From: an uncultured Methanosarcinales archaeon
GTDB lineage: Archaea > Nanobdellota > Nanobdellia > Woesearchaeales > UBA12501
Direction of reading: 5' to 3'
NCBI GenBank assembly: GCA_964397315.1
Contig: CAYNHV010000016.1
Location: forward strand, 1 to 32,178
Length of the DNA stretch: 32,178 nucleotides
Position 1 is the first letter of the stretch, and each line of letters opens with the position of its first letter. Shown piece by piece: positions 3,920-27,976 of the stretch. A program made the position numbers and the translations under genes. The notes below the pieces were generated by a model, which worked only from the letters and a program-made list of their open reading frames with translations, did no database searches and was not told the origin of the DNA.

Positions 3920-4495
3920 TCACAACCACCCTCCTTTGAGCCTTCCCTTCACAGGCCCCCCCTCTCCGATGTGGGAGTGGATGTTCAGGAAACCTCTTAT
4001 CTCATTGATGATCTTGAACGTGTCTGAGGAAACTATGCCCCTGTAGGCGGGCCTGTCTATCTTGTAGATGAACTTGTCTATGACTCCCCTTATGAAGTAG
4101 GCGTATGCTTTTGTCTCCCATCTCGCCTTCTCGCTGGTCATCAGGTAAGCGTGGAAAACCGCATCAACAGAACCCCGGTTGAGATTCCTCCTCTTTCCGC
4201 TGTCAAGCTCAACCTCAGCATCTTTCATGTTGCTTATTGAAATCTCCATGTTTATGACAGTGAAATGCTTCTTGTCAAACTTTCTCTGCAGGGTGTATCC
4301 TATGCTTATATCCCTGCCATCTGCAGTGACCTTCTCCTTGTGCGAGTCTATCTCCCTGTAGAAGCCGTTGTCATCGCACCACTTGTCTATGAGCTTCAGG
4401 AGGCCCCTGTAATCAAACACTCCCTCATAGTCAAGGCAGTACCTGTCCACCAGAAGCTCCTTTTCCATGTCCTCAAGTATCTCTCTTTCTGTCAC
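3920..4495 (-). CDS. Conserved hypothetical protein, paralogue 3 of 3
   Basis: YEGVFD..GL.K.I..W motif shared with the two upstream ORFs. Probable GTG start at 4495 after AGGTGA RBS (alternative ATG 4468). The ORF-track extension to 4654 overlaps the upstream gene. Confidence 0.75.
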   Translation of the reverse strand: MTEREILEDMEKELLVDRYCLDYEGVFDYRGLLKLIDKWCDDNGFYREIDSHKEKVTADGRDISIGYTLQRKFDKKHFTVINMEISISNMKDAEVELDSGKRRNLNRGSVDAVFHAYLMTSEKARWETKAYAYFIRGVIDKFIYKIDRPAYRGIVSSDTFKIINEIRGFLNIHSHIGEGGPVKGRLKGGWL

Positions 4496-4499
4496 TCTC

Positions 4500-5051
4500 T
4501 CACCTATAGAATCCTGGAGCCTTTTTTCCGTAGCCCCACAATTGGTATTCCTGGGAGTTGAGGTATGACTGCATTGCTGTGGAGAGCCTTTCCACGTCCT
4601 CAACAACCATCCTCTTGTACTTCTTTGTGTACCTATAAAACGCGTACTTGTCAAACAAGTCCCTTATGAAATAGAATACAGGGTTTGACCACTTGCTTCC
4701 GAAGAACCAGGGATAATCAACAAAAAGATATCCGGTGAACTTTACCTCTATCCTTCCCTGCTGGGCATTGGCTTTCTGGCTGTTGTACTCAACCTCAACA
4801 TCCTTGATGTCTGTTGCCATGACCTCCGTCTTTATCGCCCCCTTGAAATAGTCAGTGAATTTCTTCCAGGGTATGAACTCAAAAGCCATCTGTTTTGTTC
4901 CGTCAGGCCTTACCTTCTGCTCATTCAATTTCTCAAACTTGTCATACCAGTTCTCCCTGAACCAGACATCCATCTCATAAAAGAAGTGCTTGAAAACAAA
5001 CATCCCCTCGTATGCGAAGGATTTTCCGACAATCTTCTGTTTTTCTCCCAT
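4500..5051 (-). CDS. Conserved hypothetical protein, paralogue 2 of 3
   Basis: YEGMF....WFRENWYDKFEK, WKKFTDY, DVEVE..GRIEV, DY..KW..FIRDLFDKY. Confidence 0.85.
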   Translation of the reverse strand: MGEKQKIVGKSFAYEGMFVFKHFFYEMDVWFRENWYDKFEKLNEQKVRPDGTKQMAFEFIPWKKFTDYFKGAIKTEVMATDIKDVEVEYNSQKANAQQGRIEVKFTGYLFVDYPWFFGSKWSNPVFYFIRDLFDKYAFYRYTKKYKRMVVEDVERLSTAMQSYLNSQEYQLWGYGKKAPGFYR

Positions 5052-5068
5052 CCCTCATCACCAGTGTC

Positions 5069-5596
5069 TCACCAGTAATCATCAAATGCCTCGCTCTCTG
5101 ACTCCATCTCAAGGTACCTTTTTGCAAGCTGGTGGAGCTTGTTTGTGTTGTACCACAGCTTGTCCTGCCATAATGACTCTATCTCAACCCTGTAGAGGAA
5201 CCTCTCATAGAAATCCCTCAGCTTTCTCTTGAGGAAAGAGCCCTCCCACCTGCCCTCATAATCTGTCTCCACCTTCGGGAGTATCTCTATGAGCATCCTT
5301 GCCTTGTTGAGCTTTTTCTTCTGGCCGTTCTTTATGACCTCAACCTCTTTGAAATCCCAGATGTGAAAGTAAACATATATCCAGTTCTTGACATACTCTG
5401 TCTCCTCCCTCCAAGCCTCCCAGTTTACCTCAATCTCTGCAAAGCCTCCTGACTGGGTCTTGTGCTTGTACCTCTTCTCAAGAAAGTCGTATTCCCTGTC
5501 CTTGAACCAGTTTCTCATTATCTTATAAAGCCCTTCCCAGTCAAACACCCCCTGGTAGCGGAGCCTGAGGGTTGCAAGAGGCATTAGGTGTGACAT
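5069..5596 (-). CDS. Conserved hypothetical protein, paralogue 1 of 3
   Basis: YQGVFDWEGLYK.M.NWF...YDFLEK, EVEV.K.G.K..LN, DYEGRW..LRDFYERF. TATA-like box ~25 bp upstream. Confidence 0.85.
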   Translation of the reverse strand: MSHLMPLATLRLRYQGVFDWEGLYKIMRNWFKDREYDFLEKRYKHKTQSGGFAEIEVNWEAWREETEYVKNWIYVYFHIWDFKEVEVIKNGQKKKLNKARMLIEILPKVETDYEGRWEGSFLKRKLRDFYERFLYRVEIESLWQDKLWYNTNKLHQLAKRYLEMESESEAFDDYW

Positions 5597-8013: not shown

Positions 8014-8170
8014 ATGCTTGATTACTCCTGGCACTGCCCTGCCTTAGGAGGGCTTGCTTATGATCATAACTCCTGGCGCGTCCTTGGGAATATTGAGTTT
8101 ATGATTGTTATTCCTGGCGCTTCCTTGGGGATAATAAGTTTATGCTTATAAGTCAGGGTGCTTCCCTCCC
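8014..8170 (+). repeat. Degenerate 41-bp tandem repeat (2 clear and 2 partial units)
   Basis: 8058-8098 and 8099-8139 match at 33/41. Weaker units at ~8014-8057 and 8140-8170. Confidence 0.75.
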
Positions 8171-8359
8171 TTACTGCACAACCACTTAGTAGGTTTTTTG
8201 ATTCTTTTTCCGCACAACTCCCCGCTTCTGCCATTAATAAGCCCACCCAATGATATGCTCGGTGCGCTTTGGGTGGTTTCTGTGACTAGCACATTGAAGG
8301 GGGTGGGTGGCGGGCTTTGTCCATATGTAATTGTGATGAGGGCGGTGGTAAAATCTGGA
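8157..8359. repeat. ~205-bp dispersed repeat, copy A
   Basis: Aligns nearly without gaps to 27658-27862. Shared blocks include TTCCCTCCCTTACTGCACAAC, TTAATAAGCCC, TGATATGCT and TGTAATTG. Confidence 0.85.
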
Positions 8360-15209: not shown

Positions 15210-15473
15210 TTAGTTCCTCTGGTAGGCATTGTCGTGATGATCTATGGCGATGAATTCCACTGTACTGCCTTTTATGCTGAACATTATTACGTAGCTTCCT
15301 GCGTGGAAGCGTCTTAGTCCTTTCAGATCATATTTCAGAGGTTTGTAGAATTCGGGTTGCTGGAGCACTTCTTTTATCTTTTTGCATATTCTTCTAAAGG
15401 CAATGCTGTCTTTTTTCTTTATTTTTGAGAGTTCCTTTTCAAATTCTGGGGAGAATCTTCTTTGGTAAGGCAT
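15210..15473 (-). CDS. relE: RelE/ParE-family toxin
   Basis: FSPEFEKELSK, YKPLKYDLKGLRRFHAGSYVIMF and IDHHDNAY, typical of archaeal RelE. Confidence 0.88.
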   Translation of the reverse strand: MPYQRRFSPEFEKELSKIKKKDSIAFRRICKKIKEVLQQPEFYKPLKYDLKGLRRFHAGSYVIMFSIKGSTVEFIAIDHHDNAYQRN

Positions 15474-15485
15474 TTTGGGAGTTTT

Positions 15486-15686
15486 TTAGAGAGAATTAAG
15501 GTATTCCTCCATCTCTTTATCATCCTTGCAGGTCTTTCCCTTGCCCTGTTCCAGCTGTTTCTGCGCTTTTTTCACTTTCCTGATGAAGCTTTCGCTGAAC
15601 TTTTCTTCAGAGTCCTCATACAGGACTTCCTCGCACTTCTTCAGGAATTCGTACTCTTCCTTTGGTATTGACACTGTCTCTCCCAT
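15486..15686 (-). CDS. Cognate antitoxin (RelB-like)
   Basis: Small charged ORF directly upstream of relE, starting METV-like MGETVSIPKEEYEFLK. TTTAAAAATA box ~25 bp upstream supports a leaderless start at 15686. Confidence 0.75.
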   Translation of the reverse strand: MGETVSIPKEEYEFLKKCEEVLYEDSEEKFSESFIRKVKKAQKQLEQGKGKTCKDDKEMEEYLNSL

Positions 15687-15800
15687 TGTAAGGGTTTGTT
15701 GAAGCTTTGGTATTTTTAAAGGTTTTGATTTCTTGGATGCCATGGCAACAACCAGCAGCTTATAAAGGGACACTCCCTGTATAGATGAGGTTAAAACAAG

Positions 15801-20223: not shown

Positions 20224-20242
20224 TTATTCACCAAACACGGAC
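20224..20242 (+). promoter_or_regulatory. Purine-gene upstream motif, variant copy (TTATTCACCAAACACGGAC)
   Basis: 15/19 match to the two identical copies. Lies 8 bp upstream of TATAAAAG (20251). Confidence 0.55.
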
Positions 20243-20281
20243 AGCAAAGGTATAAAAGGTAGCAATAATAACCCCTGGCAT

Positions 20282-21805
20282 ATGGTTACTGCAAGGCAAT
20301 ATCTTGATGATGTGGTTGCAAAAGGGGATGAAGGTTCTGATCTTTTAAGGGCGATTTGTTCAGAAACACTGGTGGATCCACAAACTGGAAAAAACAGAAA
20401 GTATGTTGACATAATAAGCCATGGAGAGGGAGATAACAAGGTAGTGATTCCTGTGCTGAGGCTCCCCAGGGAATATCTGGTGGTGGTTCACTCTGCTGTC
20501 GGAGCGCACACTAACGATGTGGGGGATCATGCAGCCTGGCTTGTTGACAGGCTTGTGGAGGGAGCCAAAAATATAGGCGCTGTGCCTGTGGGATTTGCGG
20601 ATGTTGTTGACTCTTATAGTGGGGACACAGAAATGCTGAGTAAGATAGGGAACAGCCTGGTTGACAAGGCAAACGAATACGGGCTTGTGATCTTAAACGG
20701 AGAAAATGCAATCCTGGGAGACAGGGTAAATCCGGATATCCAGGCAAATGTCTCAGGAACAATGATAAGCATAATGAATAAAAACAGTCTGTTTACTGAA
20801 AGAGCCAATATAGGTGTGAAAGGCAATACACGCATAGAAGAGGGGCTTCCCTTTGAAATATCGGGGACCAGTTACGCTGTGTTTGATCATGGGGGCGATG
20901 CGGTATTCATCAATTCTGACGGCATAGGCACAAAGACAGAGTTCTACGAGAGAACAGGAGAACATTTCAAAGGACTGCTTGATTCGCTTGCAATGAAGCT
21001 TGACGACACAATAAAACTCGGAGCGAGAGCAAAGGCAGTCTCTGATGTTGTGGAGACAAGAGGGGATATTGATTTCCTTATGATGGAGGAGGCTGCTTCC
21101 GTGTTCTTTAAAAAGACAGGCATTACTTACATTCTTCAAAGAGAGCGGAGCGAAAACAGGATAAGGGGCTACAGCGATAACGCACCTTCATACAATGTAA
21201 GCGGCTCAGTTGTCAGCACAATAGATGAGCAAAGGCTCATGAATCCTCCAATGCCAAGAGAGGGAGACAGCCTTATTGCAATAAGAGGCAGGCCCAACCC
21301 AAGGTCAAACGGCATAACAGGCAGAAGGAAAGCCATGGTGGACATGTTCGGGGAGAACTATCACAAGACAGATATAGGGGCTGAGTTCCTTGAATATCTT
21401 GCAGAGCCATCCACAGTGTTCTATCCTCTATTCATGGATCTTCTTGACCAGGGAATTGCAAGCAGCGTGTATCACATGAGCGGCGGAGCATACAATGGCA
21501 AGCTTGCCAAGCCTCTTGCAAAACAAGGCTTGTTCGTAAGGATGAGCAACCTGTTCACGCCTGACTGGAGGGATTTTGTGTTCATGGGCCACTCAGGCGC
21601 CACTGTAAATGAAGCTTATGGGACATGGCCTATGGGCAATGAGGGATTTATCACAACAGACGGCCCTGCAAGAGCAATGGATGAAATTACAAGAAGAGGT
21701 TATGATGCAAGGGAGGCTGGGCGGATAAAAAGAACGCCCTCCCAGACAGGTGTTGAGATAGAGACCTACACAGGAAAGAGCATAAGATTCTCAGGCAAGG
21801 ACTGA
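20282..21805 (+). CDS. purM: AIR synthetase (PurM-like) with duplicated N-terminal domain
   Basis: SDGIGTK, AM..DD..GA, RSNG, YHMSGGA and TWPMG motifs, plus an extra upstream N-domain with GA.PV.FAD and NGENA. Confidence 0.82.
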   Translation: MVTARQYLDDVVAKGDEGSDLLRAICSETLVDPQTGKNRKYVDIISHGEGDNKVVIPVLRLPREYLVVVHSAVGAHTNDVGDHAAWLVDRLVEGAKNIGAVPVGFADVVDSYSGDTEMLSKIGNSLVDKANEYGLVILNGENAILGDRVNPDIQANVSGTMISIMNKNSLFTERANIGVKGNTRIEEGLPFEISGTSYAVFDHGGDAVFINSDGIGTKTEFYERTGEHFKGLLDSLAMKLDDTIKLGARAKAVSDVVETRGDIDFLMMEEAASVFFKKTGITYILQRERSENRIRGYSDNAPSYNVSGSVVSTIDEQRLMNPPMPREGDSLIAIRGRPNPRSNGITGRRKAMVDMFGENYHKTDIGAEFLEYLAEPSTVFYPLFMDLLDQGIASSVYHMSGGAYNGKLAKPLAKQGLFVRMSNLFTPDWRDFVFMGHSGATVNEAYGTWPMGNEGFITTDGPARAMDEITRRGYDAREAGRIKRTPSQTGVEIETYTGKSIRFSGKD

Positions 21806-21844
21806 ACAGCAAATTATTTAAACCACTCCTGTTTAAGCCAGAAA

Positions 21845-22636
21845 GTGGTCCGCATGAGCATAAGAATAAAAAGGCTTCTCAAGAACATGCCCAGAATGAA
21901 CAGCCCTGTTCTCATTGAGGGCCTGCCCGGCATAGGCAATGTGGGCAAGGTCGCGGTTGATTACATGATTGACAGGCTCAAGGCCAGGAAGATAATGGAG
22001 ATATCATCCCACTCATTCCCTAACTCTGTTTTCGTCAATGAGGATAATCTTGTTGAGCTGCCAAAGATAGAGGTCTTCTACAAGAAGAGGGGCAAGGGAA
22101 AGAAAGACCTGCTTCTGCTTTCAGGAGACATACAGCCTCTTGACGAGGGCTCATCCTACGAGTTCGCGCACAAGATACTTGAGCTCATGAGGGGCTTCAA
22201 TGGGTGTGAGCTTGTAACCATAGGGGGCATAGGGCTTTCTGACATACCTGAAAACCCGAAGGTATACTGCACAGGAACGTCAAAAGAGGCAATAAGCAGG
22301 TTCAGGAAAGGGCAGAGGAATGTCAACAAGAAGCTCTTTGGTGTTGTGGGCCCTATTGTCGGAGTAACCGGACTGCTTGTGGGGCTTGCGAGAGAGAACA
22401 ACATGGAAGGAGTCTGCCTTCTGGCAGAGACCTACAGCCACCCGATGTACCTGGGTGTTAAGGGAAGCAAGGAGATACTCCGAATACTCAACAAGAAGCT
22501 TGAGCTTGGCATTGATGTTGAGGCTGTGAGCGCGGAGATACAGGACATAGAGGAGGAGCTGAAGAAGAAGACAAAGGACATCAGCGAAGTGATGAAGCCG
22601 AAGAAGGAGGGAGAGCCGACCAATTACATAGGGTGA
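21845..22636 (+). CDS. PAC2-family proteasome assembly chaperone
   Basis: LIEGLPGIGNVGK, SHSFP..VFV, GDIQP, G.IVG.TGLL, LLAET and C-terminal YIG. The start may be 21854. Confidence 0.92.
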   Translation: MVRMSIRIKRLLKNMPRMNSPVLIEGLPGIGNVGKVAVDYMIDRLKARKIMEISSHSFPNSVFVNEDNLVELPKIEVFYKKRGKGKKDLLLLSGDIQPLDEGSSYEFAHKILELMRGFNGCELVTIGGIGLSDIPENPKVYCTGTSKEAISRFRKGQRNVNKKLFGVVGPIVGVTGLLVGLARENNMEGVCLLAETYSHPMYLGVKGSKEILRILNKKLELGIDVEAVSAEIQDIEEELKKKTKDISEVMKPKKEGEPTNYIG

Positions 22637-22685
22637 ACAAAACTTATTAAGAACCAATGGCTTCTTAATCATGCCTTAACCGCGT

Positions 22686-22704
22686 TTACTCACCAAACTG
22701 TGAC
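22686..22704 (+). promoter_or_regulatory. Purine-gene upstream motif (TTACTCACCAAACTGTGAC)
   Basis: Identical to 23975-23993. Core TCAC-N6-GTGA palindrome upstream of the purC TATA box (~22740). Confidence 0.65.
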
Positions 22705-22794
22705 TAAGAAGCAATGTCTTGTTCTTGAGTATAGAAATTAATATAAAGCATTTTAGGAATCAACAATGTATTAAATATGGCGGGGTGTGTTTTG

Positions 22795-23919
22795 ATGAAA
22801 GATGGCTATATGTCTGAGGAAGAAGCAGAAGGTTTGGTTTCTGATTACCTTGATAAGGAGGGGCCCGTAACACCTGCCCAGGAGCTCATAGACTCAGGAG
22901 CTGTTCCAAGGCTTAAGGGATACACTGTCAAGCCGGGCAAGGTTTCTGATTCTATCTTTGGAGGCAGGGGAAGCTATACTGACAAGAAAACAGGGGAGAC
23001 AGTTGAGTTTGAGAACCCTCCCCTCTATGCTGCTGATGGAACACCACTCAGACTGATGGTAAGGACACAGCGAATATCAACACATGACATTAACAGGGGA
23101 GAGATTCCCTTCAAAGATCAGATCTTAGCAGCAAACCATCATTACATGAGGGACATGGTAAAAGATATCCTGGGCACTTCACAGTACGGGCCTGAGGAGC
23201 TGGGCATGGAGCAAAACAGCGTTGTTGTTGCAGCAGAGAATGTGGATCTCATAATGCTGGAGAATGTCCTGAGAATGTATAACGCAAAAAGCTCAACATC
23301 AACCTCGCTATATCAGGCATGGCAAAGAGGGGAAGACACCTTTGCGGGCCATCCAATGCCTGAAGGGATCATAACCAACGGAATCCTGCCCTATCTTATG
23401 GACACCCCATCAACCAAGGATGAAAATGACATGACCGTCAGCCCTCAGTGGCTTTTTGACAAGGGAATCTGCACTCCTGAACAGTACACCCAGATAAGGA
23501 ACTCTTCAATGATGGCTTTTGGAGCTGTGTCCAAATTTGCAGATGACAATGGCCTCATATTTGTTGACACAAAAACAGAGCATGGAATAAACAGCAGGGG
23601 GCTTATTGTTTCAGCAGATGAATTATACACCCTGGACTCTTCACGATGGTGGATTAAAGAGGATTACCTGGATCAGGTAGCTAAACTGGCTTCAGGAGAG
23701 ATTGAGGAGATATCTCCAAGATCATACTCAAAAGAATTCGCCAGGGGATTCTCAAAAGGCGATCAGGGCTATACTGACGAGCAGAGGGCAAAGATTGGGG
23801 TCAGGTACATAATGGGGCTGCAGCACCTTACTGGAAAGAGATTTAACCCTGACATGAGACCAAGGGATGAGAGAGTGGTTTCAGGATTGGAAACAATTGT
23901 GGAAAGGCTGGCTGCTTAG
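22795..23919 (+). CDS. purC: SAICAR synthetase
   Basis: GKV, RISTHD, IPFKDQIL, TPSTK, GLIFVDTK.EHG, DELYTLDSSRWW and SKEFAR motifs. The ATG at 22795 follows GGGGTG (alternative start 22777). Confidence 0.93.
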   Translation: MKDGYMSEEEAEGLVSDYLDKEGPVTPAQELIDSGAVPRLKGYTVKPGKVSDSIFGGRGSYTDKKTGETVEFENPPLYAADGTPLRLMVRTQRISTHDINRGEIPFKDQILAANHHYMRDMVKDILGTSQYGPEELGMEQNSVVVAAENVDLIMLENVLRMYNAKSSTSTSLYQAWQRGEDTFAGHPMPEGIITNGILPYLMDTPSTKDENDMTVSPQWLFDKGICTPEQYTQIRNSSMMAFGAVSKFADDNGLIFVDTKTEHGINSRGLIVSADELYTLDSSRWWIKEDYLDQVAKLASGEIEEISPRSYSKEFARGFSKGDQGYTDEQRAKIGVRYIMGLQHLTGKRFNPDMRPRDERVVSGLETIVERLAA

Positions 23920-23971
23920 GATACCTCCTCCTTAAGATACAGCAGAACAGCCTGCTGGCTTGGCGTATCCT
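23918..23971 (+). terminator. Extended hairpin after purC (possible terminator or RNA structure)
   Basis: AGGATAC/GTATCCT outer stem and CAGCAG/CTGCTG inner stem. Confidence 0.4.
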
Positions 23972-23974
23972 CTC

Positions 23975-23993
23975 TTACTCACCAAACTGTGAC
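23975..23993 (+). promoter_or_regulatory. Purine-gene upstream motif (TTACTCACCAAACTGTGAC)
   Basis: Identical to 22686-22704. Upstream of TATATAAA (24040). Confidence 0.65.
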
Positions 23994-24182
23994 GAACAAT
24001 AATCATTTATTTACTATTCCTAAATGAATAAAAGAAAACTATATAAATGACCTTTTTCCATCTTATTACATGGGGGCTCCGGAATATTGCAGGATGAGAG
24101 CGAGATTCTTGAACCAGGAGATTACTTCTATTATAGTGGGTGATCCTGTCTGCAGAGAGTACGACAAACAAAAACAAACAAA

Positions 24183-25871
24183 ATGAAGAAGAACAAATCA
24201 GGCGTAGACAAATCAGGTGTAAATCTGCTTGAGCAGGTGAGAAAAGAGCTAGATAATAACCCTGAGTTATATGATATGCTTAAGAAGGAGTTAAGCCACA
24301 GGGAAGGAGATAAAGGTGAAAAATATTATTCAAAGCTTGAAGCTGCTGCTGAGGGGTGCACTTTTGAGGATGTCCTGGTTGTGCCCTCATGGTCTGATAT
24401 CCTTCCTGTAACTGCAAATATAAGCACGAATCTTACTGACGAACGGGAGATAAAAATCCCCATAATATCCTCTCCAATGGACACTGTGACAGATTATAGA
24501 ATGGCAAGATTCATGGCAGAAGAGGGGGGCATAGGCATAATCCATAAGAATCTTACTGAAGAAGAGCAGGAAAGGCAGATTGAAATGGTTAAGAGGACTG
24601 GAGGCGACATTGTAATCAAGCCTTACAGCATTGAAGAAAACAAGACAGTGGGCACTGCAAAAAAGAAGATGGAGGAGCTGGGCATTGCAGGCCTCCCTGT
24701 TATGAGGGGAGGAGAGCTTGTGGGTCTTTTTACACAAAGGGATATCTATAACAGGTCCTCACGAGAAAGAATATCCAAGTGCATGACTCCGAGAAAGGAC
24801 CTGCATGTTCTTGAGGTGGGGGATGATGTCACATCCTCAAACATACATGAGATTGCCGCAAAAAAGCTGTATGAGCCAGCAAAAAAAATAATCAAAGAGT
24901 ATAGGGTGGAAAAGGTGCCTGTCCTGCAAAAAGGAAAACTCATAGGCATAATCCACAAGAAAGATATAGAAAATGTCAATCCCAAAAGAGCAGTTGATGA
25001 CAAAGGAAGGCTTCTTGTGGGAGCGGCCATAGGCCCCGGAGAGTGGGATCGGCTGGAAGCAGTTTATTCTGCAGGCGCTGATGTCATTGTTCTGGACTCA
25101 GCGCATGGCTATTCAAAAAACATTTATGAGTTCACAAAAGGGATCAGGAGGCAAAAAAGATATAATGAGGATATCCAGCTTATAGTTGGCAATTTCTCCA
25201 CAAAGGAGGGTGTTTCCCTGTATCTTGAGCCTTACCACATAGACGGAAAGGCAGTCAGGCTGGTGAACGCAATAAGATTAGGCCAGGGGCCCGGAGGAAC
25301 CTGCACTACAAGGCAGATGGCAGGAATAGGCGTTCCACAGGTAACTGCAATAGAATACGGGAGGATGGCAATGCACGAATCCAGGTTTTACAGGAATAAC
25401 CCTGCGCCGATAATAGCTGATGGAGGAATAAAGTATCCTGGAGACATAACCAAGGCTATAGCTGCAGGAGCTGATTCTGTGATGATAGGCACAGGATTTG
25501 CAGGGACAGATGAAGCTCCGGGAGAGGTTTTCATAAACGAGGAAGATGGAAGACCTTACAAGGCCCACAGGGGGATGGGCTCTGCAGGAGCCATGCAGAA
25601 TAGGTCAAGCGCTGCAAGATATGGCCAAAAATCTCTCAGTAAAGAAAAGCGCCAGGCAGAGGGGGTTGAAGGAAAGGTAGAATATAGGGGGATGGCCTCC
25701 ATTGTTTTAGGAAGCATGATAGGGGGGCTCAAGGCAGGCATGGGTTATACTGGGTCAAGAACAATAAAAGAATTAAAAGAGAAATCAAAACTGATAAGAG
25801 TTACACCTTCTGTGGCAAATGAAAATAAGCCTCATGGGGTTCTCATGGGAGGTCCGGCTTACAGGGATTAA
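24183..25871 (+). CDS. guaB: IMP dehydrogenase with CBS pair
   Basis: [54 protein letters not shown] flap and EGVEG motifs. Confidence 0.93.
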
Positions 25872-27657: not shown

Positions 27658-27862
27658 GGTGTTTCCCTCCCTTACTGCACAACTATTTAGCAGGCTTATT
27701 GCTTCTGGAACAGCACAACTTTCCTCTTCTGCCTTTAATAAGCCCGCCCATTGATATGCTTAAAGCGCTCTGAATGATTTGCTGCTCTCAAGCTGTTAAA
27801 GGGGGAGGGGGGGTGGGATTTATCCCTCTGTAATTGCGTCTGGGGCGGCGGTTATGCCTGGA
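27658..27862. repeat. ~205-bp dispersed repeat, copy B
   Basis: Homologous to 8157-8359 in the same orientation. Confidence 0.85.
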
Positions 27863-27976
27863 TTATTCTTTTTGCTCTTGACTCAGAACAAAACATTGGT
27901 TTATTATCACTTTTAAATGACGAAAACCTAAAGCTTTAAATAGGAGTAATACCTAACAGGTGTTGCAAGGTGGTTT

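Follow-up and report, generated by a model that had tools for sequence, protein, structure and literature searches.

In this study, we analysed a 32,178-nucleotide archaeal contig (CAYNHV010000016.1; the whole stretch is called the window) and asked what function is served by a 19-bp motif that stands before three of its purine genes, purM, purC and guaB. Small archaea of the DPANN type are generally regarded as scavengers of nucleotides. An earlier note on this DNA had offered two answers: the motif is the binding site of a purine-responsive transcription factor, probably an activator, or it is the scar of a site-specific system that inserted purine genes one at a time. We propose that the motif, hereafter the nucleotide box, is an operator bound by a dedicated protein that would switch purine and pyrimidine operons on together when nucleotides are short, a reading to which we give a probability of about 0.62. 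The broader prediction, that the box is an operator bound by a protein, is highly probable.

The archaeal genome that holds the window (G000) comprises 1,471,575 bases in 61 contigs and is 93% complete. Its size and gene content suggest a member of the Woesearchaeota/DPANN. G001, G002 and G003 are relatives of the same genus, and G007, G011 and G013 belong to other genera of the same family. All TATA boxes mentioned here are predicted from sequence. The features of the locus are listed below.

20224–20242, + strand: nucleotide box before purM; abuts the B recognition element (BRE), 8 bases to TATA; place and spacing the same in G001, G002 and G003
20244–20256, + strand: predicted BRE (GCAAAGG) and TATAAA of purM, from sequence; box-AGCAAAGG-TATA conserved in four genomes
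20282–21805, + strand: divergent purM-like gene, 507 amino acids; PF00586, TIGR00878 below cut-off
22686–22704, + strand: nucleotide box before purC; 37 bases to TATA
22742–22747, + strand: predicted TATA box of purC, from sequence
22777–23919, + strand: divergent purC (SAICAR synthetase), 380 amino acids; PF01259, below the NCBIfam cut-off
23975–23993, + strand: nucleotide box before guaB; 46–48 bases to TATA; same sequence as the box of purC
24010–24031, + strand: palindromic box of a second kind (YACT-N4-AGTR type), found genome-wide; downstream of the nucleotide box and upstream of the guaB BRE/TATA
24040–24047, + strand: predicted TATA box of guaB, from sequence
24070–24186, + strand: 38-codon upstream open reading frame (ORF) in the guaB leader; its stop overlaps the guaB start
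24183–25871, + strand: divergent guaB (IMP dehydrogenase), 562 amino acids; PF00478; best outside matches 41–45% identical

The identities of purM, purC and guaB hold, though all three lie under the NCBIfam cut-offs. The first 10 bases of the ORF in the guaB leader, ATGGGGGCTC, are common to similar leaders in G001–G003.

A box shared by purine and pyrimidine operons

The sequence TTACTCACCAAACTGTGAC occurs exactly at 22686–22704 and 23975–23993, with no match in shuffles (0/100), and its 15/19 variant lies at 20224–20242. As the earlier note had described, all three copies have the same orientation (+ strand) and stand upstream of TATA, with TATAAA at 20251, 22742 and 24042; each promoter in the window has one nucleotide box. 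Within four mismatches of TTACTCACCAAACTGTGAC, the whole of G000 contains only five places, three of which are the window copies. The 28 distinct sites gave the consensus TTnnYC(A/C)CCRAACnnnGAY(R)A, with a box length of 19–22 bp. The core position is A in 19 of the 28 sites and G in nine, most of the latter giving CCGAAC, and CCCCC is preferred at the boxes of pyrimidine operons. The TCAC-N6-GTGA palindrome, to which the earlier note drew attention, is present in both exact copies but is not a conserved feature because columns 14–16, in the right half, vary across the 28 sites. The loose TCAC-N6-GTGA type is scattered genome-wide, a pattern that the earlier note would have taken as a refutation, whereas the specific box is not.

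Variants of the box were found at equivalent slots within the genus: before purM and after PAC2 in G001, G002 and G003, and before guaB-purA in G003. The purL-Q-D-N-E-H operon has a degenerate box in front of it in G000, as do its counterparts in G001 and G003, and in G000 a box also stands before the pyrD-pyrK-pyrC-pyrE-pyrF-pyrB operon. For pyrD, the box is present at five of five close orthologues and at none of three distant ones. In other genera, it stands before guaB and guaA (G007), after PAC2 (G011), and before purL, purM, purF and pyrB (G013). The nucleotide box is found in four genera of one archaeal family. The spacer between PAC2 and the box in relatives measures 0–337 bp and is of unrelated sequence. 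Genome-wide pattern matches proved to precede guaA (G001, G007), purD (G002) and a dGTPase gene (G013), and a box was also found before the purE-purC operon of G004, a site outside the training set. At the dGTPase locus (L185, G013:C28:20244, minus strand), the box lies 35 bp before TATA, and this gene is a possible additional regulon member. A further locus, L077 (G001:C50:1828–1989), has two box-like sites in a duplication spaced by 141 bp, with no TATA in phase.

Matrix scans of the box were designed to limit circularity. With a matrix built from 16 non-G000 sites, the window copies ranked 1–3 among the 190 matches scoring at least 7 in the 1.47 Mb of G000. With a matrix from 23 non-G000 sites, guaB, purC, purM and pyrD ranked 1–4 and purL ranked 7 among 737 candidate promoters of G000, defined as ORFs of at least 150 amino acids with an upstream TATA-like hexamer, spurious frames included. 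A search for the box together with a phased TATA gave five hits, whereas 30 matrices with permuted columns averaged 0.43. Upstream regions were scored with each region's own site left out, a positive being a score of at least 10 plus TATA: 29 of 45 upstream regions of nucleotide genes had the box in eight related genomes and 0 of 14 in eight other family members, counts that overstate independence as orthologous sites stayed in the training set. The same box precedes purM, purC and guaB types that are often <35% identical. The scan of the genome and its relatives that the earlier note proposed showed enrichment before purine genes and added purL, guaA and pyrimidine operons. The operator suggestion of that note is supported and widened, and its term "purine-responsive" is too narrow. 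The box is likely a lineage-restricted operator covering purine and pyrimidine synthesis, predicted to be activating. The guaA gene of G000 was missed by a PF00958 search and recovered through relatives; purA and purB were not found in searches of G000.

Outside the family, the exact pattern was found in 11 of 394 genomes, compared with 21 for the reversed control, which is background, and none of the matches preceded a pur or pyr gene at the loci read in 10 of the 11 genomes. Among 25 metagenomic PAC2 loci, no purine gene was found, and only two weak box scores (12.4 and 13.3) were obtained.

Promoter geometry and a second, genome-wide box

Across a set of 31 promoters with predicted TATA boxes, the box is separated from TATA by 8 bases (purM) or 11 bases (pyrB) in a short class with a range of 8–11, and by 35–38 (nine promoters), 46–50 (nine) or 60 bases (two) in three longer classes that step by about 11.5 bp. 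The helical phasing described earlier is maintained between 37 and 48 bases (one turn) but not between 8 and 37, which are about half a turn out. The orthologous pyrD promoters use spacings of 37, 46, 47, 60 and 37. The position of the box upstream of BRE/TATA, at a constrained distance, is like that of archaeal activator sites. Riboswitches are frequent in purine operons, and the box might accordingly be thought to act as RNA, as part of a riboswitch or attenuator. This is hardly credible, as the box lies upstream of TATA, no Rfam match was found in the window at E ≤ 1, and folding was no better than that of shuffles (z −0.15, −1.35 and +2.08).

The earlier note had not seen the motif elsewhere in the window; a related yet distinct palindromic box is present at 24010–24031 and 27903–27924. 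This global box is fully palindromic (TTWAYYACT-N4-AGTRRTnAA); G000 has 50 such boxes, each 13–15 bp from the TATA that follows, and the genes concerned have mixed functions. The TCAC-N6-GTGA palindrome of the two exact nucleotide boxes resembles it. In 9 of 11 family genomes, the global box stands before a conserved TrmB gene, which suggests autoregulation, and it is likely the site of a TrmBL2-like global regulon. Both boxes are present at 11 of the 31 promoters, and purF mostly has a weak global-type site alone, at 14 bp.

We considered whether the global TrmBL2-like protein could itself bind the nucleotide box as an asymmetric site, either unaided or together with a CRAAC-reading partner. 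The TTnnYCAC in the left half of the nucleotide box agrees with the global half-site, the two boxes are both dyads of 22 bp, and the conserved TrmB gene downstream of a global box is adjoined by a prs-like gene in five of five box-positive genomes with sequence there and in none of four box-negative ones (L225–L227, L236, L238). Purine genes are also among the targets of Halobacterium TrmB, according to the part of a review that was accessible (PMC4158304). However, leave-one-out scoring fully separates the nucleotide and global boxes (28/28 and 49/49), the global box keeps its 13–15 bp to TATA and is also present in genomes and families from which the nucleotide box is absent, and the prs-TrmB adjacency may reflect kinship only. 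We consider this explanation unlikely.

It is less likely still that a strong promoter module was copied between loci and that the box is its left edge, kept by descent or as a constitutive element, without nucleotide control. One 100-bp module (box, global box, TATA and leader start) does precede five different genes in seven promoters, and the chance of identity between two random sites, as in the purC and guaB copies, is about 7e-5. On the other hand, promoters with visibly unrelated spacers (purM, purL, guaA, pyrB, G007 guaB, and G013 purM and purL) have only the box in common, and a concentration at nucleotide genes would not be expected of a constitutive element.

Gene turnover behind a retained promoter

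Several of the purine enzymes differ widely between relatives. Within the genus, guaB is 25–38% identical (one pair 57%) and purF 22–29% over long alignments (one pair 47%), and the neighbouring PAC2 and PhoU-like genes are 68–81% and 69–81% identical, respectively. Purine enzymes at fixed slots (window 20282–25871 compared with L033, L035, L075, L081, L155 and L159–L173) are often 22–38% identical within the genus. To judge from the sequences, this divergence looks like repeated in-place gene replacement, and cross-genus pairs such as purF of G002 and G013, which are 67% identical, would favour replacement over fast drift. The window guaB had no match above 45% identity among the 7,996 best candidates, the only ones scored in the protein search. 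A quick guaB tree requires three changes for the genus, at least two of them forced by well-supported branches, a result made unsure by its long branches.

These observations bear on the proposal that a site-specific system inserted or swaps purine genes, with the box as its scar or crossover site. Parts of that proposal stand, in that purine genes at the slots turn over and the exact copies bracket the purC unit (in G000 only); in addition, differences in two G002 contigs reach the left part of the box and end there. As an account of the function of the motif, it is not supported and is very improbable. No box was found at insertion sequence ends, which also argues against a terminal inverted repeat, or at the downstream ends of gene units (best score 0.2), and no recombinase was present among the 24 window proteins scanned with Pfam. 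At the purM slot, similarity runs on through box, BRE and TATA, which are retained whichever purM stands behind them. The purF gene diverges as strongly between relatives without a box in 6 of 7 genomes, while pyrD, behind a single box, is 66–79% identical across five genomes. A fixed phase to TATA would be unexpected for a scar. The promoter-like AAAACTTATTAA (22639–22650) and the ATG-CCT-TAA (22671–22679), which the earlier note cited for insertion, are both present, but the three-codon ORF is not conserved in relatives, where the spacer behind PAC2 is unrelated.

The identity of the two window copies is probably the outcome of a local duplication or of conversion. Both this identity and the G002 junctions would be accounted for by duplication at the locus, by gene conversion or by an occasional crossover between paired boxes, and on these two observations the box may have a secondary role in recombination. 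In contigs of three DNA runs from one study, which drop rare variants, no joint at repeats was found.

Candidate factors and proposed mechanism

The dedicated protein that we favour would probably be an activator recruiting TBP/TFB. This prediction is by analogy: a site upstream of BRE/TATA marks activation for TrmBL1/Tgr, Ptr2 and TFB-RF1 in the accessible part of PMC4158304, and for Tar in that of PMC6737238. The activator would abut the BRE at purM and act from one helix face at 36, 47–48 and 60 bp. In 11 of the 31 promoters, it would work alongside a second, global factor occupying the DNA adjacent to the BRE. Because the nucleotide box resembles the global box, we tentatively suggest a TrmB-family paralogue, with a site derived from the global box, as a possible binding protein. 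The signal may be guessed to be PRPP (phosphoribosyl pyrophosphate) or the nucleotide pool, because both pathways draw on PRPP.

The TrmB domain (PF01978) has 16 matches in G000 and some in all 17 family genomes, and hence does not discriminate; profiling across the 17 genomes singled out no paralogue among the matches listed. Two TrmB paralogues have an identical helix-turn-helix (HTH) region. Other candidates were rejected. Neither a Firmicute PurR nor an HTH protein with a phosphoribosyltransferase domain (HTH-PRT) was found in G000, and PRT matches in five relatives gave no clear shared candidate. An upstream gene of 211 amino acids matches unnamed clusters only. The AbrB-PhoU neighbour is suggested by adjacency, which says little because the same pair also follows PAC2 at L099, where no purine genes lie.

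Several points weigh against a dedicated activator of nucleotide synthesis. Sixteen of the 45 upstream regions lack the box; these include purF in the six genomes mentioned above, salvage genes, some operon-internal genes and a weak G007 purM site. In G000, G001 and G003, a conserved box stands in front of a non-nucleotide gene, and several further non-nucleotide boxes are present in G001 and G013. Most positives of the 29/45 test had relatives in the training set, and many box promoters are homologous copies, so that the counts are not independent. The purM spacing class, abutting the BRE, is out of phase with the others. The searches run pinned down no binding protein: PuR_N (PF09182) had no matches in the 93% of G000 available, no HTH-PRT was found among its five PRT matches (apt/hpt-like, pyrE and purF), and the TrmB proteins clearly common to box-positive genomes are also present in box-negative ones.

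The non-nucleotide loci L042 (G000:C1:14713, minus strand), L076 and L082 have a nucleotide-type box 9 bp before TATA, beside Lrp and AbrB-PhoU genes. The gene behind this type of box is APH-kinase-like in G000 and a different one in G001 and G003, and the promoter is retained.

If the dedicated-operator reading is correct, the de novo purine and pyrimidine operons of one family of small DPANN-type archaea are governed by a common conserved operator, regulation outlives repeated turnover of the regulated genes, and the box provides a defined DNA bait for finding the nucleotide-synthesis factor. More speculatively, and with considerable doubt, a DPANN lineage may have evolved one activator for both pathways by respecifying a global TrmB-like operator. 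The operator and promoter would then form a fixed socket into which distant purM, purC, purL, purD and guaB genes are swapped and controlled at once, paired boxes sometimes serving as microhomologies.

Other features of the window

The window also contains a transposase-like ORF at the contig end (20–1024), so judged by reading and without a Pfam match; the opening 55 bases of this ORF are found again at the end of contig C30. At 3920–5596 there are three small ORFs in tandem that look alike and have no match in Pfam. A ParE-type toxin gene and an upstream small ORF at 15210–15773 are likely a type II toxin-antitoxin pair. A 123-nucleotide direct repeat (8157–8279 and 27658–27780) is 79% identical over a distance of 19.5 kb.

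Comparison with known systems

A literature search, mostly without subscription papers, found neither an archaeal factor devoted to both pathways nor any Woesearchaeota regulon. The sources cited below were accessible in part, and the comparisons are limited to those parts. In Firmicutes, PurR is a repressor in Bacillus subtilis and a PRPP-dependent activator in Lactococcus lactis (PMC8789054, PMC10912719), and PurBoxes are paired 14-mers with a central CGAA, 16–17 bp apart (PMC8789054). The nucleotide box is similar in that one DNA-binding factor would govern dispersed purine operons, and the CCGAAC of some boxes resembles the central CGAA. In contrast, the core position is more often A than G, PuR_N is lacking in G000 as noted, the boxes are single, the promoter geometry is archaeal, and pyrimidine operons are included. 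GfcR is an archaeal HTH-PRT activator homologous to PurR (PMC10838023), of a type that would suit PRPP-linked control, but it governs sugar catabolism, and the PRT matches of G000 include no such protein.

The Thermococcales glycolytic motif of TrmBL1/Tgr is TATCAC-N5-GTGATA, and that of Halobacterium TrmB is TACT-N7-8-GAGTA (PMC4158304). The nucleotide box shares a TCAC-type half-site with the former, and TrmB-domain proteins are abundant in G000; purine targets are a likeness to the latter. The box differs from both in spacer and sequence, with a degenerate right half and a conserved CCRAAC core, and does not match the TATCAC-N5-GTGATA repeat, having N6 spacing at best and a variable right half. 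TrmBL1/Tgr also acts in sugar metabolism, whereas the box is a predicted site in nucleotide synthesis. The same review notes that in haloarchaea the purine genes seem to be under the common control of a factor other than TrmB (PMC4158304). Tar (TK0271), Ptr2 and TFB-RF1 offer a likeness in architecture, a dyad site upstream of BRE/TATA common to the operons of one pathway (PMC6737238). The site of Tar, TGGACA-N8-TGTCCA, is unrelated in sequence, and the nucleotide box is further distinguished by its several phased distances and its composite two-box promoters.

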